DNA from: a virus
Taxonomy: Duplodnaviria > Caudoviricetes
Reading direction: 5' to 3' (one strand)
Length of the DNA stretch: 55,818 nucleotides
Virus record (IMG/VR): IMGVR_UViG_3300042350_003432
Location: 1 to 55,818 of that record
The translations under genes and the position numbers were made by a program. Under the pieces are notes generated by a model. It made no database searches. It had not been told where the DNA came from and saw only the letters and a list, made by a program, of their open reading frames with translations. Below, one piece after another: positions 1 to 55,818 of the stretch. How positions within the stretch are numbered: position 1 is the first letter of the stretch; every line of letters begins with the position of its first letter.

Positions 1-1
1 T

Positions 2-1123
2 CCTGATGCGATGAATGGAGCGCCTATTATCAATGAAGAAGGTTTGGTACTTGGGGGCAATAGCCGCACAATGGCAATTAAACGAGCATACGCAAGACAC
101 CCAGAAAAAGCAGAAACCTATAAAAACTATTTGGCCGATCATGCAGACTCTTTCGGATTTGCCCCCGAATATATTTCACAGTTCAAAAACCCTATTTTAG
201 TTAGGGAATATGATCCTGAAGATAAGAGTGAAAAAAATATGAAGTTACTTGTTCGTCAAATGAATGAAGGTTTTACGCAATCAATGGATGAGAAAACAGA
301 GATCGCCGCTATCTCTAGACGCTTGACAGACAAATCAATAAATGCAATAGGAAAAGCGTTCTCAAATTCCGACGCCGCTAATATCTATGAACTTTTAAAT
401 CTAGGTGATGATTATTCGCAAGACGTAATCAACGCACTTATGAAAGATGGTATCTTGTCTTATCAAAATATGAATAAATACATTGATGTAGATACAAAAC
501 GAGTTTCGCCCGCATTTGCTCATATGTTATCCGACGTTCTAGTAGGCAAAGTATTAACAAACAAGACGATCATGGCTAAAATGTCCCCCGCTTTACATGA
601 AAGATTTTCGGCGGGCGTGATTTCTCTTGTTGCCCTCAATCTCTTTGATGAGAAACAAAGACACGCCCTAGAACATGCCATCTATGCTTACTCATTCGCA
701 CAAAAAACAAACTTTGTACGAACAAGAGGGACAGCCGAACAAAACTTATCAGGCCTTCAAAATTGGATTAGTCAAGGCAAGACGGACACAGGAAAGGGCG
801 ATATTGAAGATAAAGTACGTAGTGAGCTTACTAATAACCCCTTAGCGCTTGCATACCTTGAGACGCTAGGGATTGCCACAACAGCAAGTAAATTACGCGA
901 TATGTTTTCAGCCGCCGGCGCAAAGGCCTTGGGCAAGGGAGCAGATCAAGAGGTTGATTTATTCGGGGAAACCGCTTCTATGGAGAAAGAATTAAAGAAG
1001 TTAAATGATTTCTATATGCCAGGCAAGACACAGGCGGAAAAAGACGCATATAAACTAAAGAAATCAATGAAATCAAAGTTTTCATATACCGATCTAGTTA
1101 AATCACTACGCACTAAGAAATAA
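2..1123 (+). CDS. C-terminal part of a large polyvalent-type protein with a ddrB-like ParB domain (5'-truncated by window)
   Basis: Frame is open from position 2. GAPIINEEGLVLGGNSRTMAIKRAY resembles the ddrB-ParB motif GAPI..DG.V..GN.RT.AI..AY, followed by NPILVR. Confidence 0.65.
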   Translation, partial: PDAMNGAPIINEEGLVLGGNSRTMAIKRAYARHPEKAETYKNYLADHADSFGFAPEYISQFKNPILVREYDPEDKSEKNMKLLVRQMNEGFTQSMDEKTEIAAISRRLTDKSINAIGKAFSNSDAANIYELLNLGDDYSQDVINALMKDGILSYQNMNKYIDVDTKRVSPAFAHMLSDVLVGKVLTNKTIMAKMSPALHERFSAGVISLVALNLFDEKQRHALEHAIYAYSFAQKTNFVRTRGTAEQNLSGLQNWISQGKTDTGKGDIEDKVRSELTNNPLALAYLETLGIATTASKLRDMFSAAGAKALGKGADQEVDLFGETASMEKELKKLNDFYMPGKTQAEKDAYKLKKSMKSKFSYTDLVKSLRTKK

Positions 1124-1189
1124 AATAAGCATGAAACTTGTGAACTTTGTAAAATGCAATTAAGAAACAAAGTGAACAGGATTAGAAAC

Positions 1190-2218
1190 ATGCCCTTTAA
1201 AAACGAACACGCCGCGAGGCAAACAGAACCCGAGCAATACAAAGAATTTAGACGATACCAGCCGAAGGGATTCCCTAAGGGCGTATCAGTGATCTTAGGT
1301 ATTAGCAACGATGGTAAAACAGAAATTCAAAGTGTCCGAGCAAACAAAGACGATATGACGCCCTCTGAATTTAAGCAATGGTTAAAAGAACACGATTTCA
1401 AAGATGAAGTAGAAGAGGCACAACTTGAAAAGGGCAATTACTTTGCTACTTGGATTCCCTTCACTACTCTTGCTAAAGCGAAAAAAGATAATGATGAACC
1501 TGAAATCATGGATGACAATGTAGGCATGATCGCCGGTATCGTATCAACTGATGATATGGATTTTGAAGGTGAGAAGATCAATCAAAGCGGCCTTGATTGG
1601 TCGTACTTTTTGAACAATGGTTGGTTTAATCATGAGCATAGGCCAGGGCCTGAAGCGGTTTTGGGGCATCCTACAAAGATTGAAAAGGTAGATGATCATA
1701 AAACACGCGTAGAAGGTAAATTGTATCTATCAAAACCATTAGCGAAAGAGTGCTATGATACAGCGGTAGCAATGCAAAAAGCCGGCGGGGAAAGATGCCT
1801 TGGTTTTTCGATTGAGGGAAAAGTGACACTTCGGGACCCTATCCAGCCTAAGAAGGTACTTAAAGCGAATGTGATCAATGTGGCTATTACTTCGCATCCT
1901 GTCAATCCGAATACCAATCTAGAAATCATTGCAAAGTCGATGAATGTTGGGTATCAAGAAGCGGCGATTCCTGATGCTGATGCTTCAATGTCCTCACTTG
2001 TAGAACAATCACTAGCGCAAAAAGTATCAAGCGCCACATATGGGGCGAACAACAAAGCACCCAAGAAAGAGAATAGAATGATTAGCAAAGAAGCCTTGAA
2101 AAACAAGTTAAAAGAACACTTTAGCGACTACACTAATGAGGAATTAGAGCGCCTTCTTAAACTTGTTATGGAGTCCGCAAAAAATAAGAGTCAAGAAAAA
2201 CTAAGAGATTATGAGTAA
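1190..2218 (+). CDS. prohead protease (HK97/SPO1-Twort type)
   Basis: IAGIVST.DMDFEGE, WFNHEH, LGFSIEG, NVAITSHPVNP motifs; lies upstream of scaffold and capsid. ORF opens at 1154; ATG 1190 preferred. Confidence 0.9.
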   Translation: MPFKNEHAARQTEPEQYKEFRRYQPKGFPKGVSVILGISNDGKTEIQSVRANKDDMTPSEFKQWLKEHDFKDEVEEAQLEKGNYFATWIPFTTLAKAKKDNDEPEIMDDNVGMIAGIVSTDDMDFEGEKINQSGLDWSYFLNNGWFNHEHRPGPEAVLGHPTKIEKVDDHKTRVEGKLYLSKPLAKECYDTAVAMQKAGGERCLGFSIEGKVTLRDPIQPKKVLKANVINVAITSHPVNPNTNLEIIAKSMNVGYQEAAIPDADASMSSLVEQSLAQKVSSATYGANNKAPKKENRMISKEALKNKLKEHFSDYTNEELERLLKLVMESAKNKSQEKLRDYE

Positions 2219-2274
2219 AAAGCTTGAAAAATACTTTGAACTCTAAAACAATGATCTATATAGGAGAATTTACG

Positions 2275-2988
2275 ATGAATAACGATTTAATCAAGCATCT
2301 TATGAATAAAGGGATGAGTGAGGCCGACGCCGTACAAGTCGCCGAAGGTTTCACCCCCGACGCCGTCAATGTTGACGATTTAACAATCGCCCTTGATGAT
2401 CTATCTAAAGCAATGAAAATGGATGATCAAGATCAAATGAGCGCCAAGAAAGCAAAGAAGGCCAAAACTCAAGGTTCTTTGTTTGAAAAGGGCAATGATG
2501 AAGATGGTTCTTCTTCTGAAGATGGTTCATCTTACGACGATGAAGATGAAGATGAAGATGAAGATGATGACAAGATGGAAAAAGCTATGATGGAGATGGC
2601 AAAAGGTACCGATGCCATTCTTGACGCTATGGACAAGCAATATAAAGCAATGCTTAAAGCGGTTGAAGCTTGTACAAAAGAAATCAAGGCGATGAAGGAC
2701 ACAGGGGCGGGCAAAATGCAACAAATGGAGAAATCTTTAAATCGTGCATTGCTTGAACCTGTCGCACCTACTTCTATCAATTTCAATAAGATTCCATATG
2801 TAGAACAAACAGCTAAGGCGCCCAGCTTCACTACTCAAGACGTAATGAACAAGGCCTTATCTTTAGTTCGTTCCGAGTCTGATTGGTCTAGAAAGTCCGA
2901 ACTTACAAGCGCAATTTCTAGATTAAGCGTTGGCGCTAATCCTCAAGAGATCATCGCTGAATTTAACATCAATATGAATAGCAAATAA
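2275..2988 (+). CDS. putative capsid scaffolding protein
   Basis: Between protease and capsid; acidic and helical with a D/E tract and repeated xxK[SAG] motifs; GGAG RBS before ATG 2275. Confidence 0.7.
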   Translation: MNNDLIKHLMNKGMSEADAVQVAEGFTPDAVNVDDLTIALDDLSKAMKMDDQDQMSAKKAKKAKTQGSLFEKGNDEDGSSSEDGSSYDDEDEDEDEDDDKMEKAMMEMAKGTDAILDAMDKQYKAMLKAVEACTKEIKAMKDTGAGKMQQMEKSLNRALLEPVAPTSINFNKIPYVEQTAKAPSFTTQDVMNKALSLVRSESDWSRKSELTSAISRLSVGANPQEIIAEFNINMNSK

Positions 2989-3002
2989 AGAGAGAGTAGA
3001 AC

Positions 3003-10211: not shown

Positions 10212-10427
10212 ATGGATGAACAACAAAAGACAATTGGCGCCCCTGTTGATGATATCTCACAGATCAAAGATTTGATGAGTATGACACAAAACAACGCCCC
10301 TTTAGCCCTTGCCATCTTTGCCGTACTTATGCTTAACAAGGTAAAAAATAATCAAGTAAAATCTGAACTTGAAACAAAGATCAATGATCTTGCTAGCCGA
10401 ATTAAGAAGATTGAAAACAAAGATTAA
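10212..10427 (+). CDS. small hypothetical protein with hydrophobic helix and coiled coil
   Basis: Follows tube gene after 9 nt; PLALAIFAVLML segment. Confidence 0.6.
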   Translation: MDEQQKTIGAPVDDISQIKDLMSMTQNNAPLALAIFAVLMLNKVKNNQVKSELETKINDLASRIKKIENKD

Positions 10428-12073
10428 AGAAACTTGCTAAATAGAATTCTAAAAGCAAGTTCAGCGGTTGCAGGGACAACCCCATTCCCTAGTAAAGCTA
10501 TTTCGTCCACGATACTTGTATAACTTGTACACAATTTTTCATAGTCCAACCAATCGGAAGCCCCATCAACATTTCTACCCATCTCGGATTCAACATTTCC
10601 CGATAGTTCAATAGGTTGATCTCTTCCTGTGTTCTCTCTGATTCCGGCTTCGCTAGTGCTTGTTCTCTCATCGCTCGTAGTTCGGTGAATGTTAGTTTGT
10701 TCGATCGTAGGGCTTGCATTGCTAACATATCCATTCTTTGATTCTCTAATGCAAGATCCACAGATTCCGGCGTTAGTTTGTATGCGGTGCAATCCCCTTT
10801 CATCGGTGATTGCCAATTCATTGAATCCTTGTTCGTGTCCGATCGTAGGGCTTGAATTGGCATAGATTCTTGATGCCCGTTTTGAATGTATGTTGCTAAC
10901 GCTTCCGGAGAATAAGCAATCTGTTTGAAATCCGTCTTTTTCGGTGTTTGCCAATTCATTACTTGCTCGTTCATCGTGGCTAAGTGAACTTGCCTTGATA
11001 CTTTCGCATTCTCTCGGTCGAATATTTGATCTTCCTTGATCGGTGTTATCATTGTCACATCTAGGGCATCGCTCTTTGTTGGTGTTTGCCAGTGTTGCCC
11101 TGTCATTGTCTCTATGTGTACTTGCATCCCTAAATCTAATTGCCTGTTCTCTTCTAGTCTCTTGTTCAAGGTGTCCATCTGAAGAGGATAAATCGACCGG
11201 CGCGCTATGCTTTCCATTGGCGTTGCCCAAGTCTTTACTAAGGGTTCTTGGGGGTTCGTAGAATTGTTGTTCTCGGTCTCTACCGCTAGGCGTGCAAATG
11301 CTTGAGGATTGGATTTTTTCAGCGCTAAAAGCTGATGCAGTAATCTTTTGTAGTAAAATGGTTGCGTTGTCATTCCCATATCCGCCCTGATCATACTTAA
11401 GTTTTGATTCACATACACGCTCGCCATTACTGTTGCATGTATCCGACTTGCTTTTACCGGTGTGAAAAATGTATCGGGAAAACTCTTCAAGCCTAGACGT
11501 TTCAATATCTGTTCTTTTTCCCAAGATAAAGACTCTTTGCCTAAGATGGGGGAGGCCTGTTTCTCTCGCAGAGAATAAGCCCCAATGGCACTCGTAACCG
11601 ATTCTTTCCATTTCTCTAAGGACATGAAGCAATACGGGCGTTTCTTTGGGGTCTGTCCATTCGTCTGATTGGAGCTTTGAGCTGACAAGCCCTCGAACAT
11701 TTTCCAAGAGAACAAAGGCAGGTCTTGACTCAATGATTCCTTGTTTGATGAATGGGAATAAGTGGCGGGGGTCTGTGTCACCGTCTCTTCGTCCAGCACT
11801 TGAAAAAGGTTGACATGGGAAACCGCCAGATAAGATATCCACGCATCCACGAAATTTGCCGAATGGGAATGTTTTAAGGTTCGACCATATAGGAGCGGGC
11901 GCAATGATTCCTTTTTCCATTTTGTCAATAATGTTTTCGATTGCGTAAAGTTCGATCTCACAGTAAGCGAGGGTTCGCAGGTTTGGCAAAACTCTTGCAA
12001 GTCCAAGATCAATCCCGCCGTATCCTGTACAAAGGGAGATATGATTAAATTTTTTGGTAGTATCCACATTCAT
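10424..12073 (-). CDS. DNA (cytosine-5) methyltransferase, catalytic (alpha-like) polypeptide
   Basis: Motif I SLCTGYGG, IV GFPCQPFS, VI ENV, VIII RQRVF, X LGNGV; motif IX missing from this frame. Confidence 0.92.
   Translation of the reverse strand: MNVDTTKKFNHISLCTGYGGIDLGLARVLPNLRTLAYCEIELYAIENIIDKMEKGIIAPAPIWSNLKTFPFGKFRGCVDILSGGFPCQPFSSAGRRDGDTDPRHLFPFIKQGIIESRPAFVLLENVRGLVSSKLQSDEWTDPKETPVLLHVLREMERIGYECHWGLFSARETGLPHLRQRVFILGKRTDIETSRLEEFSRYIFHTGKSKSDTCNSNGERVCESKLKYDQGGYGNDNATILLQKITASAFSAEKIQSSSICTPSGRDREQQFYEPPRTLSKDLGNANGKHSAPVDLSSSDGHLEQETRREQAIRFRDASTHRDNDRATLANTNKERCPRCDNDNTDQGRSNIRPRECESIKASSLSHDERASNELANTEKDGFQTDCLFSGSVSNIHSKRASRIYANSSPTIGHEQGFNELAITDERGLHRIQTNAGICGSCIRESKNGYVSNASPTIEQTNIHRTTSDERTSTSEAGIRENTGRDQPIELSGNVESEMGRNVDGASDWLDYEKLCTSYTSIVDEIALLGNGVVPATAELAFRILFSKFL
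10498..12069 (-). CDS. overlapping-frame (beta-like) C5 methyltransferase polypeptide with four TRD-like repeats and motif IX
   Basis: 523-codon open frame with ATG 4 nt downstream of the alpha ATG; four W-x-[TS]-P units at exact 46-aa spacing; LNPRWVEMLMGLPIGWT is motif IX-like. Confidence 0.8.
   Translation of the reverse strand: MWILPKNLIISPFVQDTAGLILDLQEFCQTCEPSLTVRSNFTQSKTLLTKWKKESLRPLLYGRTLKHSHSANFVDAWISYLAVSHVNLFQVLDEETVTQTPATYSHSSNKESLSQDLPLFSWKMFEGLSAQSSNQTNGQTPKKRPYCFMSLEKWKESVTSAIGAYSLREKQASPILGKESLSWEKEQILKRLGLKSFPDTFFTPVKASRIHATVMASVYVNQNLSMIRADMGMTTQPFYYKRLLHQLLALKKSNPQAFARLAVETENNNSTNPQEPLVKTWATPMESIARRSIYPLQMDTLNKRLEENRQLDLGMQVHIETMTGQHWQTPTKSDALDVTMITPIKEDQIFDRENAKVSRQVHLATMNEQVMNWQTPKKTDFKQIAYSPEALATYIQNGHQESMPIQALRSDTNKDSMNWQSPMKGDCTAYKLTPESVDLALENQRMDMLAMQALRSNKLTFTELRAMREQALAKPESERTQEEINLLNYREMLNPRWVEMLMGLPIGWTMKNCVQVIQVSWTK
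10678..11229 (-). repeat. four diverged tandem 138-bp (46-codon) repeats
   Basis: Trp codons at 11229, 11091, 10953, 10815; shared strings TGCCAATTCATT (x2) and CGATCGTAGGGCTTG (x2) 138 bp apart. Confidence 0.85.
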
Positions 12074-26500: not shown

Positions 26501-26884
26501 AAAGAAGGATTCGCCGTAGACAAGGGCAAATGGTCAAGTATCAAGGTAAATAAAGCAATCGAATTCTTTAGATTGACACAAAAGAAGATCACCGGCGCCG
26601 AACAGAAACTTGAAAAAAGGGGCGTGTATGATCATCGTTGGCTTGCGGGGTATCCAACAACCAGGATTTCACAAGAAGAATATTTATCTAAGCATTCAGA
26701 AGGTTTACCGATTGGCGGCGTAACATGTGGATCAAGTACAGATAGAAAGAGTGTACTATTTACCGGCGCTTCCCTTATTCAAAGCGTGCTAGGCGTAACA
26801 CAGATCAAAGATGCTATCGCTAAGGCGACCACGCCCGAACAAAGAGAGCAGGCAGCAAAAGAGAAATATGGTGATAAAGAATAA
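23537..26884 (+). CDS. bifunctional primase(-polymerase)-helicase
   Basis: AEP/PrimPol-like DFD...YKTKHGLRV; Zn-binding CPWH..H...CMHASC; P-loop ANTKAAGKTT, Walker B VLDN, TSNN; long C-terminal extension. Confidence 0.85.
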   Translation: MNEAKGKFYPHLSSEVLNQWYNEPLFCSILPNLKVKAGQYTNPAVFHVDLKDALRTQFNTDAQMQPAYASQLVKATAQTWRLGTEHIKDLQVQIDFIALDFDAKREESPREKWAWSNDDFSACVISWAAHPILGNSLTYKTKHGLRVLIPLEAPFMIDKELRGKDWEKVYESILARLPKSSFGAFDVSCDTVVKTYRLPQVIREKEYLYSFFYVPAKQYVHKIDMLSMFSDISYITAQRQAIRGVSQGLIEVFKENKLYIEPMNKQINGELVHRVQCPWHDLHSSNDDKSTASVLFLGDNGWVFNCMHASCKTERTKPNALRNKFPRGWSDFVQDGFEYEFNSIDGQEIIRNLVEVLKSSKEAPFYQRGNEIVRVKMNLEIDRETIYTPSVEEITGYILQFSRWYTVKTTKEGLTRNYIALQVATIKIYYAYIKDMLPRIEGVTSIPPINSAFEPLQTHKGYCEAQACFYSPVRHFNFKALQDIPSSTQAAKDAALRLLDLFCDFPFAQDHYRLMALATLFTAGFRKKIDAPAPLFLVSANTKAAGKTTFIQTALAGVYGIRQPSIMATPEKQEELEKQLNTMLLEGEDFIVLDNITQALGSGSIDAILTSSVYKTRILGKSHMPTIKIRSFFAGTSNNAVMKADTDRRVITVRLVSDLDRPDERRDFKHRDILTFASQNTSSIWRDMLTIQKSFQELADVEELSKELSSMGSFTEWADWVQYPVAWVGKLLGFMNVDIVEMSRSEIVSRENDDLNTIFQGLYSYQRDLGAGVQWNAPDLYTALKNKHSEDEYLEPLQDALLQGISLSVVNLGRRLMRYKDKVCNGYKLQYYRLAGNKSVYSLVRITPPTERKDFTPEQTYQDHLNTQEAPKETNQPINQVTSSVNTSTTTIESILSLCGHKEDADKKQPCKFIQKGNVCALNDGEPCEASFVYQVEEPKKKEETKEALFELETIDTFKQICTEALKQRLTTLLNDLKKPAEIVDILNKEGFAVDKGKWSSIKVNKAIEFFRLTQKKITGAEQKLEKRGVYDHRWLAGYPTTRISQEEYLSKHSEGLPIGGVTCGSSTDRKSVLFTGASLIQSVLGVTQIKDAIAKATTPEQREQAAKEKYGDKE

Positions 26885-28038
26885 TGAGTTCAAAATTTAC
26901 GCATGTTTCCGCATCACAGATCAAAACTTATCTTGATTGCCCCCGCAAATGGTATCTACAAAAGATCGTTGGGCTACCGTCTCCATCAAGCGCATCTACT
27001 GAACTTGGTAAAGATATACATAGCATCATAGAAGCCTATTTCAGAGATGGGCTAGATATCCCAGAAACAGACACAGGGGCAATCGCTAAACGCGGGCTTG
27101 AGTATTTACCTAGTAGAGATGAAGATTTATCAATTGAATTAGGTATTCATGAGGCCCTACCGATCAAAGATTCCCCCGTCCCTATTATGGGATTCATTGA
27201 TTTACTCCATAAAGGGGCGGGGTTTGTACGTATCATTGATCATAAAACGACCAGTTCAAAGAAGTATACAAAGACTTCAAAAGAACTAGGTTATGATGTT
27301 CAAATGAATATCTATGCACGATCAATCTTTGATAATATGCCCGCCCTTGAACAGGTTGAGGTTGTGCATGTTTACTATGGTACGAAAGCGCCGGCGTGGT
27401 CGTCTAGTGTTTCATATGTACTCACTAGACAAGAAAACGATGATCATTTTAATGAAATTGTAAAAACGATTGACAAAATGAAAATCGACGCTATAAAAGA
27501 AGAAAACGAGGTTGAAAAAAACCTTGAAGCATGTTTCAAGTTCGGGGGTTGCCCTTATCGCTCCGAATGCCTTTTAAAACGAAAAGAGATTGACACTATG
27601 ACACAGACACAAGGTCAAGATTTAGCAAGTAAGTTAGGACTTACAGCGCCTAAAGCACCAGTACAAGCAGCACCAGTACAAGCAACACAAGTAGAAGCAA
27701 AGATTCAAGCACAAATTGAACGCCCTTTAGCAATTGTCCCGCCGTATGAACGCCGATCATTGTTCATTGGTTGTTTGCCCCAAAAGAGTACGATTGCACC
27801 TGTCACATTTTACGAAGCATTTAGAGAAGAAATTCAGATGATTTGTAATCAGTTTCAAGTTTTTCATTTGTCTCAAGTCGATTATGGTAAAGGTTGGAAT
27901 GCGTTCCAGTCTTTACTAGCTTCTCAAAGTTGGTCAAAGACAACAACAGCTATCTACATTGATCCTATGAGCGATGAATTTACAAGAGTCGGCAGCTTAT
28001 TAATTGCGAATGCAAGTACAGTGATTCGAAGAGTCTAG
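26884..28038 (+). CDS. PD-(D/E)xK exonuclease (Cas4/AddB-like, Fe-S)
   Basis: SASQIKTYLDCPRKWY, GFID, IIDHKT, Q...Y, CFKFGGCPYRSEC. Confidence 0.88.
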   Translation: MSSKFTHVSASQIKTYLDCPRKWYLQKIVGLPSPSSASTELGKDIHSIIEAYFRDGLDIPETDTGAIAKRGLEYLPSRDEDLSIELGIHEALPIKDSPVPIMGFIDLLHKGAGFVRIIDHKTTSSKKYTKTSKELGYDVQMNIYARSIFDNMPALEQVEVVHVYYGTKAPAWSSSVSYVLTRQENDDHFNEIVKTIDKMKIDAIKEENEVEKNLEACFKFGGCPYRSECLLKRKEIDTMTQTQGQDLASKLGLTAPKAPVQAAPVQATQVEAKIQAQIERPLAIVPPYERRSLFIGCLPQKSTIAPVTFYEAFREEIQMICNQFQVFHLSQVDYGKGWNAFQSLLASQSWSKTTTAIYIDPMSDEFTRVGSLLIANASTVIRRV

Positions 28039-28044
28039 AATAAA

Positions 28045-29676
28045 ATGATTGCTACTGAATGGGAACGCCTCCGATTAGTTCCCTTAGATAAAATTGAACA
28101 TAAGCAAGATTTGACAAAATACTTAAAGAGACCAGAAGGCAAACAACAATTACGGCCTATTCAAAATGAGATGCTATGGCAAGCAATCGACCGAAGGGGC
28201 TTACTTGGTTTTGTTGCCTGTGGTGAAGGTAAAACGCTAGTTTCTATGCTTCTACCATCTGTATTGCGTTCTAATCGCCCTTTGTTATTGTTGCCCGCGT
28301 TTATGATTACACAGCATAAATCCGATCGTAGTTCTTATGGTTTACATTGGGACTTGAAAGAGATGAAAGTGTTATCATATGAAACTCTTTCAAGTCCTAA
28401 AAGACTAAAAGAACTTGAGGACTACGCCCCAGATCTGATCATATGTGACGAAGCGCACTTACTACGCAACCTAAAAAGCGCAAGAGTGAGACGCCTTGAT
28501 AACTACATGATCAAGTTTAGTCCTATGTTCTGTGCGCTAAGTGGTACTTTGGTTGCACGCTCAATCGTTGATTATTCGCATTTGGCATCATGGGCGCTTG
28601 GTGCATATTCAACAATTCCTAGAATTGCTTCTATCGTGCAAGAATGGTGCTTGAGCATTGAGGAAGGGATACACTCTAAATTAGTAAATACGATCATCCC
28701 TAAAGGTTCAAAAGAAGAATATCTATCAAGACTACAAAGAACAAAGGGAATCGTTATAACTAAAAGTCAAGAGGTTGGGGCGTCCCTAGTAATCAATAAA
28801 GAGAAAATAAGCATGCCAGCCAGTCTAAAAAAGAGTATTGCAATTGCTATGAGTACTAATGACATTGTAAGCGCAACAAATGAAATCCTAGACGCCGAAC
28901 AGCTTGAAGCAGTGTTTCAATCATCCGATCTATGGACGCCAAAAGACGCGTTTTTACTTAGAGTATGGGGGCAAATTTCATGCGGTTTTATCTATGCTTG
29001 GGATTGGGAAGATAGAGAAATTGATCATGAATGGATTGAGTACAAGAGGGCATGGGGGCGGGCATCGTTTCAAATGCTTGAGCGATCAAGTTTTGATAGT
29101 ATCTCTTTGATTTCACAGTATGCAGAAACAAAAGAAGCGCCTAAGGCCCTTTCTATAGCGTGGCAAAATTGGAAGAGTGTAAAGGATAGGGAAGCGCCAA
29201 AAACTAAAGCGATTTGGCTTGATGATTTCTTGATTGACTATGTTAAAAAGTGGACTCTTGAACAGCCTGAACCTGTTTTAATATGGTGTGCATATTCCGC
29301 CCTAGCGCATAGATTAAAGGGCGCTTTGAATTGTGAATTATATGGGGCGGGCAACGATGATGCAAAAAGACTTGATACAAATAAGCACAAGGCACATACG
29401 GCGATCATGAGCATTCAAGCACATGGGACAGGGAAGAATTTACAGGCTTGGAATAATCAGATCATCGTTCATCCGCTCTCTCATCCTAGCACATGGGAAC
29501 AAATGATCGCTAGGACACACAGACCAGGGCAAGCAGCGGATGAAGTACATGTATCTATTTTAAACATGGGCTTATTTGCTAAATCGTTTAATAAGGCGCT
29601 TAGAGATGCTCAATATATCCAAGATACAACAGGGCAAAAGCAACGCTTAATCTATGCAACAAAGAATGATAAATAA
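28045..29676 (+). CDS. SF2 (SNF2-like) helicase
   Basis: CGEGKT, DEAH, LSGT, GTGKNLQ, Q..ARTHRPGQ. Confidence 0.9.
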   Translation: MIATEWERLRLVPLDKIEHKQDLTKYLKRPEGKQQLRPIQNEMLWQAIDRRGLLGFVACGEGKTLVSMLLPSVLRSNRPLLLLPAFMITQHKSDRSSYGLHWDLKEMKVLSYETLSSPKRLKELEDYAPDLIICDEAHLLRNLKSARVRRLDNYMIKFSPMFCALSGTLVARSIVDYSHLASWALGAYSTIPRIASIVQEWCLSIEEGIHSKLVNTIIPKGSKEEYLSRLQRTKGIVITKSQEVGASLVINKEKISMPASLKKSIAIAMSTNDIVSATNEILDAEQLEAVFQSSDLWTPKDAFLLRVWGQISCGFIYAWDWEDREIDHEWIEYKRAWGRASFQMLERSSFDSISLISQYAETKEAPKALSIAWQNWKSVKDREAPKTKAIWLDDFLIDYVKKWTLEQPEPVLIWCAYSALAHRLKGALNCELYGAGNDDAKRLDTNKHKAHTAIMSIQAHGTGKNLQAWNNQIIVHPLSHPSTWEQMIARTHRPGQAADEVHVSILNMGLFAKSFNKALRDAQYIQDTTGQKQRLIYATKNDK

Positions 29677-42366: not shown

Positions 42367-43374
42367 ATGAAAACTAATCAAATTTATCATGGTGATTGTC
42401 TTGACCTCATGCCGTCAATTCCCAGTAAATCGGTTGATATGATCCTTTGCGATTTGCCTTATGGAACAACGGCTTGTGAATGGGATTCGATAATTGATAT
42501 GGGTAGACTATGGGAGCAATATGAGAGAGTGATCAAAGATAACGGGAATATCATTTTAACAAGTCAAGGCATGTTCACAGCTAAATTGATGGTTTACAAA
42601 GAGGCATGGTTTAATCACGATTATGTATGGATTAAGAACATCCAATCTAATTTTGCTTTAACAGGATACCAACCGCATAGAATATTTGAAAATGTTTTAG
42701 TGTTTAGACCACCTAGAAAAGAAGATTTAAATATTCAATTCAATTTAGAGCTTCGTACTTATTCTCATAAGATATTATCTTTTATCAATATGCCAAGTAA
42801 AAAGATTTGTGAGAAATTGGGCAATAGGAAAGCAGAACACTTCTTTTACTATAACAGCTCACAATTTGGATTGTGTACAAAAGAAACATATCAAGAGTTG
42901 ATCGAGCATTTCAAGATTGACCAGATGCAGGGCTTTTTGAATTATGAAACTTTGCAATCTATGAATCCCCCTTTCACTTTTAACTTTGATGATCGTATTA
43001 AAAGTACAAAGCAAAAAATAAAAGCTAATTTTGACATAAGAATGTACGGTGATACTAATAAAAAAGAAACAAGATATGTAGAAAAAGCATACGAAAATTA
43101 TCCAAGAAATACATTATATTTTGATCGAGAAATAGGATTACACCCAACACAGAAACCGGTATCCCTGTTTGAATATTTAATAAGAACCTACAGCAATGAA
43201 AATGAAGTAGTCTTAGATAATTGCAGCGGTTCAGGGACTACAGCGATAGCGTGTTTAAATAGTAATAGGCAATATATTTGCATAGAAAAAGATGAAGCAT
43301 ACTACAAGAAATCACTTGAACGCGTAGCAAATCATGAACCTCTTTTAAATTTACAAAATATCAATGAAAACTAA
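42367..43374 (+). CDS. site-specific DNA methyltransferase (N6-A/N4-C, beta class)
   Basis: GDCL, DLPY, HPTQKPV, VLDNCSGSGTT. Confidence 0.92.
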   Translation: MKTNQIYHGDCLDLMPSIPSKSVDMILCDLPYGTTACEWDSIIDMGRLWEQYERVIKDNGNIILTSQGMFTAKLMVYKEAWFNHDYVWIKNIQSNFALTGYQPHRIFENVLVFRPPRKEDLNIQFNLELRTYSHKILSFINMPSKKICEKLGNRKAEHFFYYNSSQFGLCTKETYQELIEHFKIDQMQGFLNYETLQSMNPPFTFNFDDRIKSTKQKIKANFDIRMYGDTNKKETRYVEKAYENYPRNTLYFDREIGLHPTQKPVSLFEYLIRTYSNENEVVLDNCSGSGTTAIACLNSNRQYICIEKDEAYYKKSLERVANHEPLLNLQNINEN

Positions 43375-43935: not shown

Positions 43936-46527
43936 TTAAATGATACAAGCGCCGCCCGCACATGCCAGCTCTTGGGCCTGTGTTGTCTCATCTGTGCCCT
44001 CTAAAACGCTATCAAAGTCAACCGCATTGCTTGATCTAAGAGATACCCATAAATCGAATGCTTCCGCCCGTTCTTGCTTCTTTTGGCGTGCTCTCTCTAA
44101 GTCTTGTTCTAGTGTAGTTTTTGAATTGTGTTCTTTGTATGCATGTTCAAGCTGTTCAACCTCATCAAAGTACATGTTCTGATTCTCTATGTGATCATAT
44201 ACCGCTTTGAATGGGGGTTGTTGGTAGTCATAATCGCCGCTCATGCTTAGGAATGATACACCGCAAAAATACTCTTGATTATCAAAGACAAATTCGCCCG
44301 CCTGTTCCCATTCGTTAGGGCGTACGTTGCAAGTATTTGAAACATTATGATCAGAACCTTCAAGGGATTTAGGGCGTGCGTTGCCATTCTTTACCCATGA
44401 ATTATAGACCATCTTAACAAGTGATAAGAATTCTGTTGCTTTGAGATCGTTTTTAAACACGTTTTCGGGGTTGCATTCTACAGCGAAGATCAAACATTTA
44501 TCAGTTCCATTCGCCGCCCATACACTGTTTTTCACCGCTTGGGGGTTAAGTTCCTCAAACTTTTGAACAAGTGCGGAATCGGCGGGAACTTGTACATGTC
44601 TTAGAAACCGGCGGGCGTGTTCGGGGTGAATGCCAGACGCACAGCCCAAAATTACGGAAGCGGTCCCGCTAGGTTTTACACATGTAATTCTAGCCGCCGG
44701 TTTGATACCTATTTTCTTTGAAAATTGCTTATTGATTACGATTGCAAATTCAGCAAGCGACTTGAGCAAAAATGATGCCCGATCTTCTTCATGCTTGAAA
44801 AAGAAAGCGGAATTGGCTAGACCGGTCAACGATACCCCTAACAATGCTTCACGCTCTACAATTTGCTCACTTACAGGGCCTAAGTAGTCTGATTTAGTAT
44901 AACTTGCTTGCAATGTGCCAAGTTTTACAGCGTTCTTAACAGCTATGTAAAACGCATCAATAGAATCAATAGAGAAATCTTTAAATTTGGATGCATTAAC
45001 TTCTGTTAAATTGCACGCTTGCCAGCCGCTCTCAAATGTGTATCCTTGATCTTCGTATTTGGTTCTATTTTCGGGGTTGATAAGATCAAGTGTATATTCG
45101 TCAACAATGTGGCCCGCATTGTCTTTGATGAGCATAGGACACATAGAAATTTCTACGCAATTATGAACAACAACACCATTCGCAATAAAACTATGCGTTT
45201 TGTTTTCTGTGAGATCATAAACTTCTTCTTTAGCAACAAAATCAAAAGAGACTACGGCGGAAACATCAACATTTGAAACATTATCATCTAAGACAACATG
45301 CACAAGATCACCAGGCAACAAATCGCCCGCTTCAATCCAGCCTTTAGAAGTCATGATTTGATGGTTTTTAGTACATTCTACAAAGTATCCATTTTCTAAG
45401 GTTAATTTGTACACGTCTTGAATACCGGTAGAAAATACGCCCTTATCTGTGCTTTCTGAATAAGTCCCTTGCTTAAATCGTGGGTCAATTCGTAAAGATG
45501 TTTTTTGTTTTGCGTCAAATAGTTGCTTGGCTGTCTTGTACCCCTCAGCGGTCAAGATTTTTGTTCTACCACTAACGCATGGATTGAAACAGAACTCTGT
45601 TGACTCGGTAAACACGAATCCAGGTTCGCCCCATTGTGGCACATTGTCTAGGAATTTCTTCATGAAATCTTGTTTGTCAAGTTTATTTTTCAAGGCTACC
45701 GCTGAAATATTGGCCCTTGCTCTATATGGTGCATCTTTCCACCAATTCCCAGTTTTAGCGGTCCACATGTCCGAATCATCCATGCTGAAAATTGCAATGG
45801 TTGCACTTCTACGCACGCCACCAGATAACACACAATCAGACGCAACGCACACGATATCAAGGCAATCAATACTACGTAGAGTCATGCCCGCCCTTGAGAC
45901 AAGTATCTTTTCAATCATTTGTAAACTGAATTTGAGAGGCACGGGCCCGGGCGCTTTACCACCATGAGACAAAGGGGCGCCTTTCTTTCTAATCAGTGAA
46001 TAATTGAAGATGGGCATGGTATCAGATTGACCAAGATAGAACTGAATAAGGGCATCAAGCGCATCAGCCCAGCCCTCAATCGTATCTTTGATCATGAGGA
46101 TCCTCATTTGTGCGTTGTTAATTTGATCAGATGAGATCACAGGGGGCAACTTTGAAACGTGGTGCTTTTGTACAGAATAACCCACGCCACAGCCACACAG
46201 AAGAAGCCATAGTGACTCCGCAAAGAAGCGGGGGCGGTCACAAAATGAAGTAGTACAATTGAAAATGCGCCAAGGCTTATCAAGTATCGCCTTGCCCCCA
46301 AATTGCAATGATCTTTGAGAACCTAGAATATCTTTACGCTTTAGTGAATCTTCGATCTCGTTCAAATCCTCAAAGATTTCAATGTTATCAATGAACTTTG
46401 AGGCGTGCATATTCATAAGCCTATCTACAGACTCGCCCCAGTTCTCACGCCGTCTCTTAGATGGTAGATACTTTGCGTAGGTTTGTTTAAATGTGAAATT
46501 GGCAAGGTTGCTGCGTTGAATATCCAT
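43936..46527 (-). CDS. nrdJ: class II (B12-dependent) ribonucleotide reductase, intein-containing
   Basis: FNC, GCGVG, GGVRRSA, NP[intein]CVE, CNLTE, TCVKPSGT, C-terminal CAGGAC; no nrdB nearby. GGAG RBS favours ATG 46527 (ORF opens at 46542). Confidence 0.9.
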   Translation of the reverse strand: MDIQRSNLANFTFKQTYAKYLPSKRRRENWGESVDRLMNMHASKFIDNIEIFEDLNEIEDSLKRKDILGSQRSLQFGGKAILDKPWRIFNCTTSFCDRPRFFAESLWLLLCGCGVGYSVQKHHVSKLPPVISSDQINNAQMRILMIKDTIEGWADALDALIQFYLGQSDTMPIFNYSLIRKKGAPLSHGGKAPGPVPLKFSLQMIEKILVSRAGMTLRSIDCLDIVCVASDCVLSGGVRRSATIAIFSMDDSDMWTAKTGNWWKDAPYRARANISAVALKNKLDKQDFMKKFLDNVPQWGEPGFVFTESTEFCFNPCVSGRTKILTAEGYKTAKQLFDAKQKTSLRIDPRFKQGTYSESTDKGVFSTGIQDVYKLTLENGYFVECTKNHQIMTSKGWIEAGDLLPGDLVHVVLDDNVSNVDVSAVVSFDFVAKEEVYDLTENKTHSFIANGVVVHNCVEISMCPMLIKDNAGHIVDEYTLDLINPENRTKYEDQGYTFESGWQACNLTEVNASKFKDFSIDSIDAFYIAVKNAVKLGTLQASYTKSDYLGPVSEQIVEREALLGVSLTGLANSAFFFKHEEDRASFLLKSLAEFAIVINKQFSKKIGIKPAARITCVKPSGTASVILGCASGIHPEHARRFLRHVQVPADSALVQKFEELNPQAVKNSVWAANGTDKCLIFAVECNPENVFKNDLKATEFLSLVKMVYNSWVKNGNARPKSLEGSDHNVSNTCNVRPNEWEQAGEFVFDNQEYFCGVSFLSMSGDYDYQQPPFKAVYDHIENQNMYFDEVEQLEHAYKEHNSKTTLEQDLERARQKKQERAEAFDLWVSLRSSNAVDFDSVLEGTDETTQAQELACAGGACII
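45160..45579 (-). mobile_element. mini-intein (140 aa, no homing endonuclease) in RNR
   Basis: Starts CVSGRT; block B CTKNH; ends VYDL...HSFIANGVVVHN before Cys; splits the NPC.E loop. Confidence 0.93.
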
Positions 46528-46604
46528 GTTTATTTTCTCCATGGTTTACAGTGATGAAAGTTCTTAAGTATAATTCTTTAAATGCCAGTAAACAATTTTA
46601 TTTT

Positions 46605-47051: not shown

Positions 47052-47825
47052 TCATTTTTGTTCATCCATATTCAATTTTAATTGTGTTTCGGTGAGTCCT
47101 TGGTAATAGACTACTTCTTGTGTTTGTCTTGCTCTACAATTTTGTAAAGATGAGAAAGGTTCAAAAGGTAGCCAATCAGCACCTTGATTCTCACATACGA
47201 TGATCTCACCTTGCCTTTCTTTGCACCATTTACCAAGATGCTTGAAATCAATATTTTTACTTGATTCCTTGTAGCTTTTTCCAGCTAATTGATAAGGAGG
47301 GTCAATAAACCATGTTGCATCTTCATTCTCGATTTCATCGTAACTTTTTTGCTCAATTTTCCAATGTCTTATGTATTCTAATTGATTTGCTATTTTGTTC
47401 TTATTTTGAATCGTCCAACAACAAAAGTTTCTCGGTTTTCTTGTGGTATAATAATCCCCTTCAATTAGAATTTTTGATCTACTTGTATGCTTGATTCCAG
47501 GTTTTGTACTTGTAAGCATAAGCCAGAAACCAATCAAATATTTAGCTTCTTGGCAAATAGGATACTCATCAACAGATTTATCAAAATCAATCAATGGTAA
47601 ACTAAGAAACTCGCTTTCAGATACACTGATTAAGTAATCCCAGATCGAACATATAACATCGTACTTGTCAAACAATTTTACTTGTTTGTGTGGATAGTGT
47701 AATGAGTAACACGCGCTACCTGCAAACGGTTCTATTATCACATTTTTTGTTGGTGCATGGTACTTTTTAGATAATCTATACTTGCTGCCAAAATAACTAA
47801 AGAACGGTTTTAATGGTTTACTCAT
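47052..47825 (-). CDS. DNA adenine methyltransferase (Dam/D12-like alpha class)
   Basis: FFSYFGSK, EPFAGSA, FIDPPY. Confidence 0.85.
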   Translation of the reverse strand: MSKPLKPFFSYFGSKYRLSKKYHAPTKNVIIEPFAGSACYSLHYPHKQVKLFDKYDVICSIWDYLISVSESEFLSLPLIDFDKSVDEYPICQEAKYLIGFWLMLTSTKPGIKHTSRSKILIEGDYYTTRKPRNFCCWTIQNKNKIANQLEYIRHWKIEQKSYDEIENEDATWFIDPPYQLAGKSYKESSKNIDFKHLGKWCKERQGEIIVCENQGADWLPFEPFSSLQNCRARQTQEVVYYQGLTETQLKLNMDEQK

Positions 47826-50890: not shown

Positions 50891-50934
50891 TTGTTTTCTC
50901 CGTAGTGTGTGATCGTTTTTGTTAAGGTACTTTC

Positions 50935-52620: not shown

Positions 52621-53343
52621 ATGAAAAAGAAATATAGTACGCGGGACTTTTTGAAACCTAAGAGCACATGTGAAGGGGCATTGATTGCGACGCGCCGCGC
52701 TTTAGCTGATTGCGAAGTACGGGGGTGGCTTGCGGAAGATTTGGGCGTCTCATATTCAAAGTTTTGTGATTACCTATCAACATATGAAGACAAAGCAAAC
52801 ATATTGCCCACTTGGTCAAAGCATTGGGACATAGCGCCCTCTATACTTCAAAAGATCGTACTCATTGATCCTAGTATTCCTAGCATACTAAAGACAACAC
52901 GAATGGAGCACGTGACGGCCTCACAGGTTCTAGCTAATTTAAAGTTCTGTGTTTCCATAGTACAAAGAAACCTAAATCAATCAATCATTGATCAAAAGAT
53001 AGCTATTCGCAAATGGACAGGCCTAAATAGTGACTATGCAATCTTAGCCCCTAGCCTGTATCACTGTTCAGAAGTCTTAATTGATGCCAGTATTGACGAG
53101 GGCGATTGTGAGTGTCATATAGATGAACGAATTCTTTTTATCGTGGCAACTTGGGGCGGGTGGCAACTAAGGGCGGAGATTGAACATTGGCTAACAAATG
53201 TAGCTACGATTTTTAGGGGCGTGTCTCTTGGTTACTATCCACATGATCAACATGTTGACTTTACAACATGCTCAATTAAGAAGGCACCTGTAGATACGCT
53301 TGAAAAACATAAGCTTGATCAAATTAGAAAAATCTTTGTTTAG
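52621..53343 (+). CDS. hypothetical protein (possible HTH)
   Basis: WLAEDLGVSYSKFCDYL HTH-like segment. Confidence 0.65.
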   Translation: MKKKYSTRDFLKPKSTCEGALIATRRALADCEVRGWLAEDLGVSYSKFCDYLSTYEDKANILPTWSKHWDIAPSILQKIVLIDPSIPSILKTTRMEHVTASQVLANLKFCVSIVQRNLNQSIIDQKIAIRKWTGLNSDYAILAPSLYHCSEVLIDASIDEGDCECHIDERILFIVATWGGWQLRAEIEHWLTNVATIFRGVSLGYYPHDQHVDFTTCSIKKAPVDTLEKHKLDQIRKIFV

Positions 53344-53353
53344 AAAGTATGCT

Positions 53354-54196
53354 ATGAAACCACTTCTTAAATATCCAGGCGGGAAGCTTGATGAACTTGT
53401 TCATATTTTGCCTGTGTTGCCTACATATAAGAGATATGTTGAACCATTTATTGGCGGGGGCGCTTTATACTTTTTCTTAGCACCTGATCAAGCCTGTATC
53501 AATGATCTAAATAGTAATGTGATCAATTTTTATAAGACAATTAGAGATGATTATGACTTGTTCATGAACCAGATTACAAAGATACATGAACTCTATCTAC
53601 ACAATCAAAATAGATACGCTAAGCAATGCGCCCAAGGTATGGAGAACCCAACAAATGAGAATGAAGCTTTATACTATGCCCTACGAAACGCGTTCAATGG
53701 TGAACCTTCTGACTATTTGCCCGCCGTCCTATACTACTTTATCAATAAAACAGCGTATGGAGGCCTTACACGATACAACAATAAAGGGCGGTTCAATGTA
53801 CCATTCGGGCGCTATGCTTCTTTTAACATTGATAGCGTGAGTAAGTATCATAGTACGTTACTACAAAATACACAGATACAAAATCAAGACTATTCAAGCA
53901 TCTTTGAGCACATAGAAACAAGTGATTTCATGTTTCTAGATCCGCCCTATGATTGCAAGTTTCATGAGTATGGTAATCAAGAGATCAAAGATGCAGATAA
54001 TGAAGCATTTCAGAGGAGACTAGCAGCCGATTTTAAGAATTTACATTGTTCGGCGCTGATGGTAGTAGCAGAAACACCATTGATCAAAGATTTGTACGCT
54101 AATTATATCTTTGCCAGCTATCAGAAAAAGTACGCCGTCAACATTAAGAACCGGTTCAATCAAGAAGTAAAGCACTTGATCATAAAAAACTATTAA
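53354..54196 (+). CDS. Dam-family DNA adenine methyltransferase
   Basis: LKYPGGK, EPFIGGG, IND.N, RYN.KG.FNVPFG, FLDPPY; specificity not determinable. Confidence 0.92.
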   Translation: MKPLLKYPGGKLDELVHILPVLPTYKRYVEPFIGGGALYFFLAPDQACINDLNSNVINFYKTIRDDYDLFMNQITKIHELYLHNQNRYAKQCAQGMENPTNENEALYYALRNAFNGEPSDYLPAVLYYFINKTAYGGLTRYNNKGRFNVPFGRYASFNIDSVSKYHSTLLQNTQIQNQDYSSIFEHIETSDFMFLDPPYDCKFHEYGNQEIKDADNEAFQRRLAADFKNLHCSALMVVAETPLIKDLYANYIFASYQKKYAVNIKNRFNQEVKHLIIKNY

Positions 54197-54271
54197 ATCT
54201 TTATTTAAATATACTATGAAAGATTAAACTTGTTAAAAGTGTTTACAAGTCACAAAACACACGAGGGAATC

Positions 54272-54571
54272 ATGAAAAAGATTAAGCCAGCACCTAGACA
54301 GGTTGTACATTTAGACCGCCCACAAACAGCGATTCTAAAGCTCATTGCCCTAATGGGCGAAGTATCACAGAAACAAGCAATCACAGCTATTTTCAATATG
54401 GGCCTTGGCGCTTTACTCAAGGCAATCAATGAAAAAGATGATATTCAGTTTCTAGCGACTCTCAAAACCTATGGCAACGATGAGACCACAGATCATTTAT
54501 TCACAGAACTTTTCAAGCTTAGTGACTCAAGGAAGGCCCACAATGAACGCACACAATCAGACGAGACTTGA
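54272..54571 (+). CDS. hypothetical protein
   Basis: GAGGG RBS before ATG 54272. Confidence 0.6.
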   Translation: MKKIKPAPRQVVHLDRPQTAILKLIALMGEVSQKQAITAIFNMGLGALLKAINEKDDIQFLATLKTYGNDETTDHLFTELFKLSDSRKAHNERTQSDET

Positions 54572-55145
54572 AATCTTTGAATTTCTTTGTTGCAAAGACC
54601 ACTTGAAAGAGAATGAACCTATGAGAAATAGAACACTATATGAAGATTTAAACAATGAACTTGCGACTTCAAAAGATATCGCTGATCTTTGCGATCGATC
54701 ATCCATTTTACTAGCAAACATTATCAAACTTGCAGACAACCCAGACGCCGTAGATATCTTCATGAAACAGGCTGAAGTTTTAAGTTACATGTTCAAAGAT
54801 ATGGCGTACAAATGCCCTAAGAAGTCCGTTCGTTCTCTTGTATCTGAATGGATCAGAGAAGAAAAGACACTACGGGAAATGGCTAAATTGCTCAATGAGC
54901 AAGGATTGACCACCAACACAGGTAAACCATGGACTTACGCGCTAGTTGCCTATACCTTCAAAGACTTGTTCGATGCAAACAAGGCAAACCCCGCACAAGT
55001 TAGCGCACCAGTTCGGGCAAAAGAATTGCGAGATCGAGGATGGACACTAGAAGCAATTGCACAGGCGCTCAATGATGAAGGATTTACCACGCTACGAGGC
55101 GGGGCGTATTCATCCGGTACTGTGCATCACCTATTGAAGGATTAA
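54543..55145 (+). CDS. protein with two recombinase-family DNA-binding (HTH) units and no catalytic domain
   Basis: TLREMAKLLNEQGLTTNTGKPWT and TLEAIAQALNDEGFTTLRGGAYS. Confidence 0.7.
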   Translation: MNAHNQTRLEIFEFLCCKDHLKENEPMRNRTLYEDLNNELATSKDIADLCDRSSILLANIIKLADNPDAVDIFMKQAEVLSYMFKDMAYKCPKKSVRSLVSEWIREEKTLREMAKLLNEQGLTTNTGKPWTYALVAYTFKDLFDANKANPAQVSAPVRAKELRDRGWTLEAIAQALNDEGFTTLRGGAYSSGTVHHLLKD

Positions 55146-55147
55146 CT

Positions 55148-55288
55148 ATGAACGCTATTATGATTGCCAGCCTTGGGCTACTACGACAGATTGCCGAACC
55201 TATCCTAAGGGAAGATGAAACAATTCAAAGAAGAGTCTTAGATTTCTTAGATACCTTGATCAGTGAACTTGAGGGAATTGATAAATGA
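55148..55288 (+). CDS. small hypothetical protein (46 aa, not in ORF track)
   Basis: MNAIMIASLGLLRQIAEP...LEGIDK fills the gap; AAGGA RBS; ATGA overlap with next gene. Confidence 0.6.
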   Translation: MNAIMIASLGLLRQIAEPILREDETIQRRVLDFLDTLISELEGIDK

Positions 55289-55746
55289 AGATCAAAGAAC
55301 AGATACAGGAACTAAGAGAACAAATCGCACGCTTAACGATGCACCTTGTCAATAAGAATGAAGTACTTAGAGAACATAGATATGAGATTGCCAGCCTCAA
55401 AGAAGAAAACAAGCTATTGAGGGCGTGCGTAGATGAAACACGCTTAAAAGTACTAGCGTTATTCCTGAAACAAGATATTCATCATCCAGTTTATTCCCAT
55501 GACTTTGAAACATTGTATCAGTCGATCGGTGATTACTTCTTTTCGCCGATCATGGCAGACAATGTGTATCCCGCCCTTTTTGCGTCTGAAGACTTAGCAC
55601 ATAAAAACATTTGTATTCATGCACTCTATGAGCAAATGAAAGACAATGAACGCACGCTTGAAGATGCAAGGATAATAGAAATCATTGAGAAGGCTAGCCA
55701 GTACCGAGCAGCACAGAACCAACAGGGCAAGAACGATGAAGAGTGA
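55285..55746 (+). CDS. hypothetical coiled-coil protein
   Basis: ORF track; coupled start. Confidence 0.65.
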   Translation: MKIKEQIQELREQIARLTMHLVNKNEVLREHRYEIASLKEENKLLRACVDETRLKVLALFLKQDIHHPVYSHDFETLYQSIGDYFFSPIMADNVYPALFASEDLAHKNICIHALYEQMKDNERTLEDARIIEIIEKASQYRAAQNQQGKNDEE

Positions 55747-55818
55747 GCACCTAAAACAAAGAATGAATCAAGTCTTAGTACTTGCTCAATCGTCTAAATG
55801 CCCACGAAAACAATTCGG
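55736..55818 (+). CDS. probable dCMP deaminase (3'-truncated)
   Basis: MKSEHLKQRMNQVLVLAQSSKCPRKQFG matches the M..A...A..S.C.R..VG start of dCMP deaminases; thyX and nrdJ are in the genome. Confidence 0.55.
   Translation, partial: MKSEHLKQRMNQVLVLAQSSKCPRKQF

Follow-up and report, generated by a model that had tools for sequence, protein, structure and literature searches.

Complete strand polarity of CCAG in a tailed-phage contig and its possible origin in evasion of an orientation-dependent host nuclease

CCAG and CTGG in the window

We analyzed the virus contig IMGVR_UViG_3300042350_003432 (Caudoviricetes), a whole record of 55,818 bases (b; hereafter the window, or G000), in which the tetranucleotide CCAG occurs in a single orientation. 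On the + strand, a machine count over 1..55818 gives 157 CCAG (first site at 101, last at 55698) and 0 CTGG, and the next most lopsided pair of 4-mers stands at 144:61. CCAG is asymmetric, that is, it differs from its reverse complement CTGG, and its single adenine lies on one strand only. Throughout, we refer to CCAG on the + strand as the kept orientation and to CTGG on the + strand as the reversed orientation, and ratios are given as CCAG:CTGG. The explanation that we favor, with somewhat better than even confidence and by analogy with known systems, is that the phage evades a host nuclease which depends on inverted pairs of CCAG and resembles Type III restriction enzymes but has a 4-bp site. 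Such a nuclease would recognize CCAG and cut only a DNA molecule with two unmodified sites in facing orientation, so that a genome with 157 sites arranged head to tail, lacking any inverted pair, would escape cutting without methylation and without loss of sites.

The first-pass annotation of this DNA, made by eye, had described CTGG as missing from the + strand and CCAG as abundant there, which the machine count bears out. Its GC content of ~38% has to be corrected to the measured 40.0%, and where it expected ~120 copies of each word, base composition gives 129 CTGG and 139 CCAG; the expectations from an order-2 Markov model are 51 CTGG and 89 CCAG. Gene maps are our own calls of long open reading frames (ORFs), not curated annotation. 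We identified 52 long reading frames in the window, with 35,828 b in genes on the + strand (+ genes), 16,176 b in genes on the - strand (- genes) and 3,814 b between genes, such that 31% of the coding DNA lies on the other strand. The sites split into 108:0 in + genes, 44:0 in - genes and 5:0 in intergenic DNA (3.0, 2.7 and 1.3 per kb, respectively). The same rule had been claimed for + genes, - genes, methyltransferase genes, the intein and the spacers, and each of these indeed contains 0 reversed sites. The spacing of CCAG averages 356 b (minimum 4 b, maximum 1,607 b). Because any inversion longer than the largest gap would flip at least one site, the further claim that no recent inversion has occurred also holds for the window. 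When the word is extended by one base, the reversed orientation is missing in all eight cases, upstream (ACCAG 49:0, CCCAG 29:0, GCCAG 48:0, and TCCAG 31:0) as well as downstream (CCAGA 31:0, CCAGC 32:0, CCAGG 31:0, and CCAGT 63:0), which indicates that only four bases are specified.

Expected counts in the window were obtained from 300 rounds of shuffling of synonymous codons within each gene class. The reversed orientation was expected 71.2 ± 6.9 times in + genes (minimum 49) and 31.7 ± 5.3 times in - genes (minimum 19), or ~103 times in total, and was found 0 times in both classes. The kept orientation was found 108 times in + genes vs. 95.4 ± 7.9 expected (z = 1.6), and 44 times in - genes vs. 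43.8 ± 5.5 expected (z = 0.0). Absence of the reversed orientation while the kept orientation is at expectation shows that this is a one-sided purge, in which the former is removed and the latter is left alone, and not an effect of codon usage. CCAG alone among the 3- and 4-mers listed is biased in the same direction in both gene orientations (p = 1 × 10−13), and the base skews of the window flip with gene direction. Tryptophan (Trp) codons are preceded by a codon ending in C in 0 of 121 cases in + genes and in 13 of 79 cases in - genes; the base before TGG at those 121 Trp codons of + genes is T in 61, A in 46, G in 14 and C in 0 cases. The shuffles and the two gene directions thus agree with the original view that neither codon usage nor transcription bias is at work.

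Polarity in relatives of the phage

The relatives compared here come from viral contigs (48 terminase loci) and from metagenomes (48 capsid loci), and five contigs were taken whole (L-numbers denote loci and G001 to G005 whole contigs; G002 comprises L053–L056, and G003 comprises L057 and L058). Longest-ORF gene calls are unreliable in the relatives of high GC content. The closest of these contigs, G001 (67.6 kb), is collinear with the window, with 83.5% nucleotide identity over 49 kb, and contains CCAG and CTGG at 186:8. Its backbone of 62.2 kb stands at 174:0, and all 8 reversed sites fall in three islands that lack nucleotide homology to the window (5.4 kb; 12:8). The islands contain four tandem N6/N4 methyltransferase genes (~255 amino acids) and a fifth such gene (471-3518 and 8062-8889 of L051) as well as one frame of 538 amino acids of unknown family (136-1752 of L049), and 6 of the 8 reversed sites lie inside the five methyltransferase genes. 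Two of the islands are cassette sites that hold single, different methyltransferases in the window. The counts in other near relatives are 36:3 in L066, 20:1 in L067, 18:0 in L068, 33:1 in L086, 16:1 in L100 and 17:0 in L094. The reversed sites of L066 (3) and L086 (1) are outside the part homologous to the window, and L067 and L100 have one reversed site each by a point difference. The first-pass annotation had proposed to repeat the count in related phages, and near relatives do share the polarity (the G001 backbone, L068, and L094).

The ~12 kb at the right end of G001 (55796-67646; 27:0) have no counterpart in the window, in which no terminal repeat was found either; on these two grounds, the record may be incomplete as a genome. 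This end of G001 includes two more N6/N4 methyltransferase paralogues.

Comparison of the backbones shows that the kept sites turn over. Among 137 aligned CCAG sites of the window, 49.6% are kept in G001, which corresponds to rank 117 of 250 4-mers (average 48.7 ± 9.9%), and a second mapping identified 68 sites common to both genomes, 67 found in the window only and 75 in G001 only, with no reversed site in either backbone. Average conservation together with this turnover indicates that the kept sites drift neutrally, and no reversed site arose in either backbone in the process. Compensation between the two genomes, that is, gain of a site near a lost one, was not seen (P = 0.11; 21 of 107 control 4-mers reach P ≤ 0.05).

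Sister lineages differ in the word that is targeted. G002 (65.8 kb, 76.9% identity to the window) contains CCAG and CTGG at 71:10, with both orientations under expectation (53 vs. 101, 8 vs. 84, 2 vs. 26, and 14 vs. 36). Only 15% of 133 window sites are kept there, which is rank 238 of 250 4-mers, and CCWGG is wholly avoided (CCAGG and CCTGG both 0); L069 (1:3) and L070 (8:5) resemble G002. In G003, a 25.5-kb fragment (25,534 b) with a terminase 69% identical to that of the window, CCAG stands at 125:18, and the fully one-way word is CCBAG, at 71:0 (CCCAG 39:0, CCGAG 9:0, and CCTAG 23:0; CCAAG is at 52:50). The CCBAG sites of G003 lie in ORFs of both directions, and its 18 reversed CCAG are all CTGGH. 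Other loci of this lineage contain CCBAG at 13:0 (L008), 29:1 (L071) and 15:2 (L097). The kept orientation of CCAG is enriched ~1.5-fold in G003 (125 vs. 81 ± 6; z = 6.9 and 3.5 by gene direction); the corresponding z values are 1.6 and 3.1 in G001, and in G002 the kept orientation is depleted. None of the 23 relatives with less than 70% capsid identity (with GC content of at least 54% except in one case) is one-way, and most are near 1:1.

Apart from their number, the kept sites are distributed evenly. The coefficient of variation (CV) of CCAG spacing is 0.80 in the window, rank 1 of 108 4-mers of similar count, with 0 of 400 synonymous shuffles as low; 0.91 in G001, rank 1 of 103, with 33 of 400 shuffles as low; and 0.67 in G003, rank 1 of 84, with 0 of 400 shuffles as low. 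The window and G001 are not independent in this respect, half of their sites being common to both; G003 is largely independent. The CV in L071 is 0.72 (P = 0.003); 5.8 of the 14.6 kb of this locus overlap with G003. In all, the sequence analyzed for the G003 lineage amounts to 25.5 kb plus ~9 kb. Gaps longer than three times the mean make up 1.3% and 0.8% vs. 4.9% expected, and gaps shorter than a quarter of the mean make up 7.3% vs. 21.8% in G003 and 17% vs. 22% in the window, which contains CCAG sites 4, 6 and 9 b apart. CCBAG in G003 is Poisson-spaced (CV 1.04).

No 5-mer of the window qualified as another polar word. ATTTGG, considered as a second one-way word, was rejected as weak (22:1 in the window, with 15:0 in + genes and 7:1 in - genes; 22:6 in G001 and 19:12 in G002). 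An A-rich, T-poor stretch 5–8 b after CCAG, in which T makes up 9% at the sixth base, is present in both gene directions and in G001–G003; it was rejected as a part of the site, given that it also follows ACAG, CCAC and GCAG. In G002, which appears circularly permuted relative to the window, GCTGA:TCAGC stands at 51:0 in + ORFs and 9:11 in - ORFs, and ACACAG at 27:0 vs. 2:2; both were dropped as polar words, being one-sided in + ORFs only. Family-wide polar 4-mers (GACA at 76:0 in L027, CAGA at 53:1 and GCAG at 51:1 in L046) were dropped as coding bias because the loci are almost one-directional, the trinucleotide skew is broad, and the bias of GCAG follows gene direction, changing sign from L007 to L071. 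The relatives of higher GC content (L027, L034, L043, L046, L048, G004, and G005) show extreme trinucleotide skew on the main coding strand, which looks like coding bias (GAC 225:30 and CAG 215:50 in L027). Distant relatives with 51–61% GC are nearly devoid of CCAG/CTGG, with the survivors in one orientation (1:0 in the 12,983 b of L027 and 0:0 in the 9,621 b of L079); L024–L026 are likewise low and in one orientation (12:0, 5:0, and 11:0).

Explanations of the polarity

The purge is complete, one-sided, independent of gene direction and maintained through turnover of the sites, and it breaks down only in DNA that G001 acquired recently. A reversed copy that is intolerable, next to a kept copy that is harmless, points to a nuclease that needs inverted pairs, according to the logic of Type III enzymes; to our knowledge, cleavage dependent on inverted pairs is the sole mechanism that makes the reversed copy of a harmless site intolerable. 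We infer from this pattern the host nuclease as the agent, its Type III-like nature and its reading of four bases. The first-pass annotation had offered two proposals, an orientation-dependent host defense that reads a 4-bp asymmetric site, which the present evidence supports better, and a polar signal for a nickase, primase, packaging motor or Chi-like process. One of the methyltransferases of the G001 islands may protect CCAG. The setting of an arms race, with methyltransferases that vary between relatives and nine palindromes that are absent from the window, fits evasion of a host nuclease as well. The other target word in the G003 lineage and the other course taken by G002 fit it too, as does the single adenine of CCAG, hemimethylated Type III sites likewise having their methylatable base on one strand only.

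Several known systems can be compared. The EcoP15I site has 6 bp, and the T7 genes all run one way, so that, presumably, coding bias can produce the pattern seen in T7. Excerpts of PMC3874151 state that all 36 EcoP15 sites of T7 are in one orientation and are not restricted, cleavage requiring two inversely oriented sites, and that Type III sites, which are hemimethylated, can be modified but not cut if they are in one orientation. The window resembles this case in that every copy of an asymmetric site is in one orientation and no inverted pair exists; it differs in that there are 157 four-bp sites compared to 36 in T7, the bias ignores gene direction, and the enzyme is hypothetical. Type ISP-like sites have 6–7 bp, and Type ISP and MANTIS systems need facing sites more loosely than Type III systems do. 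Accordingly sized sites of 6–7 bp, compared to four specified bases here, make ISP-like, BREX and MANTIS systems fit less well. For Pseudomonas phages, excerpts of a 2026 preprint (bioRxiv 10.64898/2026.09.23.753747) describe Type III and MANTIS sites as depleted with a strand bias, with a hemimethylated MANTIS site of 6 bp and a graded orientation preference of MANTIS. The selective depletion of one strand in an asymmetric defense site is common to those phages and the window; as far as those excerpts go, the biases there are statistical across phage panels, whereas here a 4-bp site is purged absolutely.

Short Type III sites are on record. In excerpts of PMC5700931, ModH5 of H. pylori is a Type III Mod with the 4-bp site G(m6A)CC, where m6A stands for N6-methyladenine, and in excerpts of PMC4417156, ModD1 of N. 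meningitidis is a Type III Mod whose site, CC(m6A)GC, is built on CCAG. The same excerpts give further 5-bp Type III sites, CGYAG, ACACC and CCAGC (PMC4417156) and GWCAY (PMC5700931), and a Type III subgroup that forms N4-methylcytosine is also mentioned in the literature excerpts. A Type III site can therefore have 4 bp, or a CCAG core with its single adenine methylated, as would be needed here; on the other hand, neither ModH5 nor ModD1 reads plain CCAG, both come from host-adapted pathogens and not from lake bacteria, and neither has a known link to the phage studied here. Chi and KOPS/SRS are likewise short words on one strand that are read directionally, and their even coverage resembles that of the kept sites, but in the window the count is neutral and it is the reversed word that is banned. 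As far as we know, Chi and KOPS have 5–8 bp, are enriched, and are skewed but never absolutely one-sided.

Some observations weigh against evasion of a host nuclease. A full-text literature search yielded no report of an enzyme or phage with bare CCAG, only longer sites, namely CCAGC (Type III), CCAGT (Type IIG) and CCAG(N6)TGAY (Type I). Neither a host nor a host methylome was found. The kept sites are more even in the window, G001 and G003 than evasion predicts, and neither this even spacing nor the enrichment of the kept orientation in G003 (125 vs. 81 ± 6) is predicted by evasion alone. Furthermore, 8 reversed sites are present in G001 and 18 in G003, so a single inverted site is not always lethal; these phages may have other hosts, or may be protected by a methyltransferase. 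All relatives share one orientation, as expected from shared ancestry, and there is no independent case of the opposite choice.

The even spacing is the main argument for regarding CCAG as a polar signal intrinsic to the phage, read on one strand by a directional motor or enzyme of phage or host, such that a reversed copy would misdirect the machine and hence be forbidden; we take this to be unlikely, if clearly worth considering. Candidates for such a signal include a KOPS-like guide of a translocase, a Chi-like protector of a rolling-circle tail and a strand mark made by an asymmetric methyltransferase. CCAG would then be a four-base, one-stranded and evenly spaced genome punctuation that is in use, and the likeness to Type III logic a mere resemblance, a form of the idea to which we give the same rather low credence. 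The machine that reads it would be a translocase of phage or host, a helicase-nuclease restrained in the manner of Chi, or a methyltransferase or nickase that marks one strand, and a reversed copy would be harmful by itself. It would account for CCAG being the most evenly spaced 4-mer in the window, G001 and G003, with both short and very long gaps depleted, shuffles never as regular in the window and G003, and L071 similarly regular, as well as for the enrichment of the kept orientation in G003 and, mildly, in - genes of G001 (55 vs. 39.6). A signal in use is harder to reconcile with a kept count at expectation and average conservation in the window, with the lack of compensating gains between the window and G001, and with G002, which has the same replication and packaging genes and is losing sites in both orientations. 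G003 tolerates 18 reversed CCAG, and its absolute word, CCBAG, is Poisson-spaced; the known polar words, Chi and KOPS, are longer and are not known to be absolutely one-sided. We also found no candidate reader among the phage genes, the methyltransferases being Type II-like and the helicase and nuclease matches generic, and a primase or Chi alone would leave the ban on the reversed copy unexplained.

The absolute ban and the neutral number of kept sites could also be explained by a site-specific nickase, directed by the host against the phage or by the phage against host DNA, that nicks one strand of CCAG. Sites on both strands would then break the DNA, whereas sites on one strand would suffer only repairable same-strand nicks, as in the virion DNA of T5, which has nicks on one strand; nickases with short sites exist. 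The depletion of closely spaced kept sites fits a cost of two nearby nicks on the same strand, but sites 4, 6 and 9 b apart exist in the window, a nickase leaves unexplained why long gaps are depleted and why the kept orientation is enriched in G003, and a scan of 48 reading frames gave no match to HNH, GIY-YIG or other nickase families; we consider a nickase improbable. We regard as very improbable a strand-specific bias of mutation or repair, for example through one-way replication, that erodes CTGG without selection on the sites. A process linked to replication is expected to act uniformly across both gene directions, as observed, and C before TGG is mostly replaced by T in the Trp contexts given above. 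However, 0 of ~103 would require an extreme rate, yet the G001 islands hold 8 reversed sites; the base skews follow gene direction, without asymmetry of the replication type; no neighboring word is in matching excess on one strand for both gene directions; and G003 bans CTVGG while tolerating CTGGH, which is the pattern of a recognition site and not of a mutational context. Finally, chance, codon usage, or an artefact of assembly or sequencing can be practically discounted. The 300 shuffles never fell below 49 reversed sites in + genes or 19 in - genes, and an artefact is unlikely because relatives on separate contigs of two public collections share the polarity and the reading frames of the window are intact; an error in base calling caused by methylation would, we reason, affect both orientations alike.

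If a host nuclease that needs inverted pairs is indeed the cause, one genome predicts an undescribed, orientation-dependent restriction specificity of four bases in uncultured lake bacteria, and polarity would be enforceable against both gene orientations at 157 sites while half of them turn over. The sister genomes would then form a series of answers to one pressure, in which the window keeps all sites one way, G001 buys methyltransferases and relaxes, G002 loses the site altogether, and the G003 lineage tracks a shifted target. If CCAG turned out instead to be a polar signal, it would represent a novel form of directional punctuation that spans an entire viral genome. How evenly the kept sites are spaced is a lead of its own, which would be far more surprising if functional.

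Genes, habitat and host of the phage

Four DNA methyltransferase genes were identified in the window, and the methyltransferase complement differs between close relatives. The C5 cytosine methyltransferase gene (10424..12073, - strand; 3:0) is absent from G001 and has a 64% identical copy in G002. The gene of an N6/N4 methyltransferase of the beta class (42367..43374, + strand; 2:0) occupies the cassette site that, in G001, holds the four tandem methyltransferase genes with 4 of the reversed sites. Its nearest relatives of solved structure are the Type II enzymes M.RsrI, CcrM, DpnA and M.MboIIA, and not a Type III Mod. The gene of a D12-class adenine methyltransferase (47052..47825, - strand; 4:0), which is found in the window only, lies at the second cassette site, where G001 has a different methyltransferase with 2 reversed sites. 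The fourth gene encodes an adenine methyltransferase of the Dam family (53300..54196, + strand; 3:0). Model matches of the methyltransferases are to Type II or orphan enzymes (for the N6/N4 enzyme, among the best 25 of 52 families), and structure matches are to Type II enzymes. Comparison of gene content between relatives identified no single gene that tracks the polarity. The ribonucleotide reductase gene (43936..46542, - strand) stands at 10:0, with 2:0 in its intein part (~45159-45558).

The genes of a Cas4-like PD-(D/E)XK nuclease and an SNF2-like helicase (26884..29676, + strand) were considered as a Res-like pair carried by the phage, and this was rejected, the matches being generic and weak: the SNF2 match is below the curated cut-off, and the ResIII match lacks a qualifying matched stretch. 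Judging from these sequence matches, the two genes probably serve replication or recombination, and a Type III system (Mod and Res) encoded by the phage does not appear to be present in the window.

Matches to Pfam and PHROG families identify a phage with a contractile tail and with genes for capsid, protease, sheath, baseplate and large terminase. Further genes encode a family A DNA polymerase, a large protein similar to primase-polymerases, a clamp, the Cas4-like nuclease, the SNF2-like helicase and a resolvase; others match the class II ribonucleotide reductase with the intein, a thymidylate synthase, an SLT transglycosylase and an M15 peptidase. No tRNA genes were found in the window. A megablast search of phages gave no match to the window, the terminase has less than 30% identity to every cultured phage among the matches listed, and no phage names occur among the best 120 of 373 capsid homologues. 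One distant match, with 44% identity, is to a metagenome-assembled genome, and HIP1 repeats were not found. Near-identical DNA is present in contigs of 20 of the 24 metagenome runs listed, from 15 studies, of which 3 runs may be the source of the record; the runs are labeled as lake, freshwater, wastewater, aquatic or marine metagenomes. The host is probably a Gram-negative lake bacterium.

With respect to other short words, nine 6-bp palindromes are absent from the window (ACTAGT, CAGCTG, CCTAGG, CTCGAG, CTGCAG, GACGTC, GAGCTC, GTGCAC, and TCGCGA; 8–18 copies expected of each), TCGA and ACGT are at about one third of expectation, and GATC (316 vs. 200) and GCGC (211 vs. 89) are over-represented. 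A protein with ddrB-ParB domain, encoded at 11-1123 of the window, has no counterpart in the G001, G002 and G003 pieces and has a 26% match in the distant relative G005.

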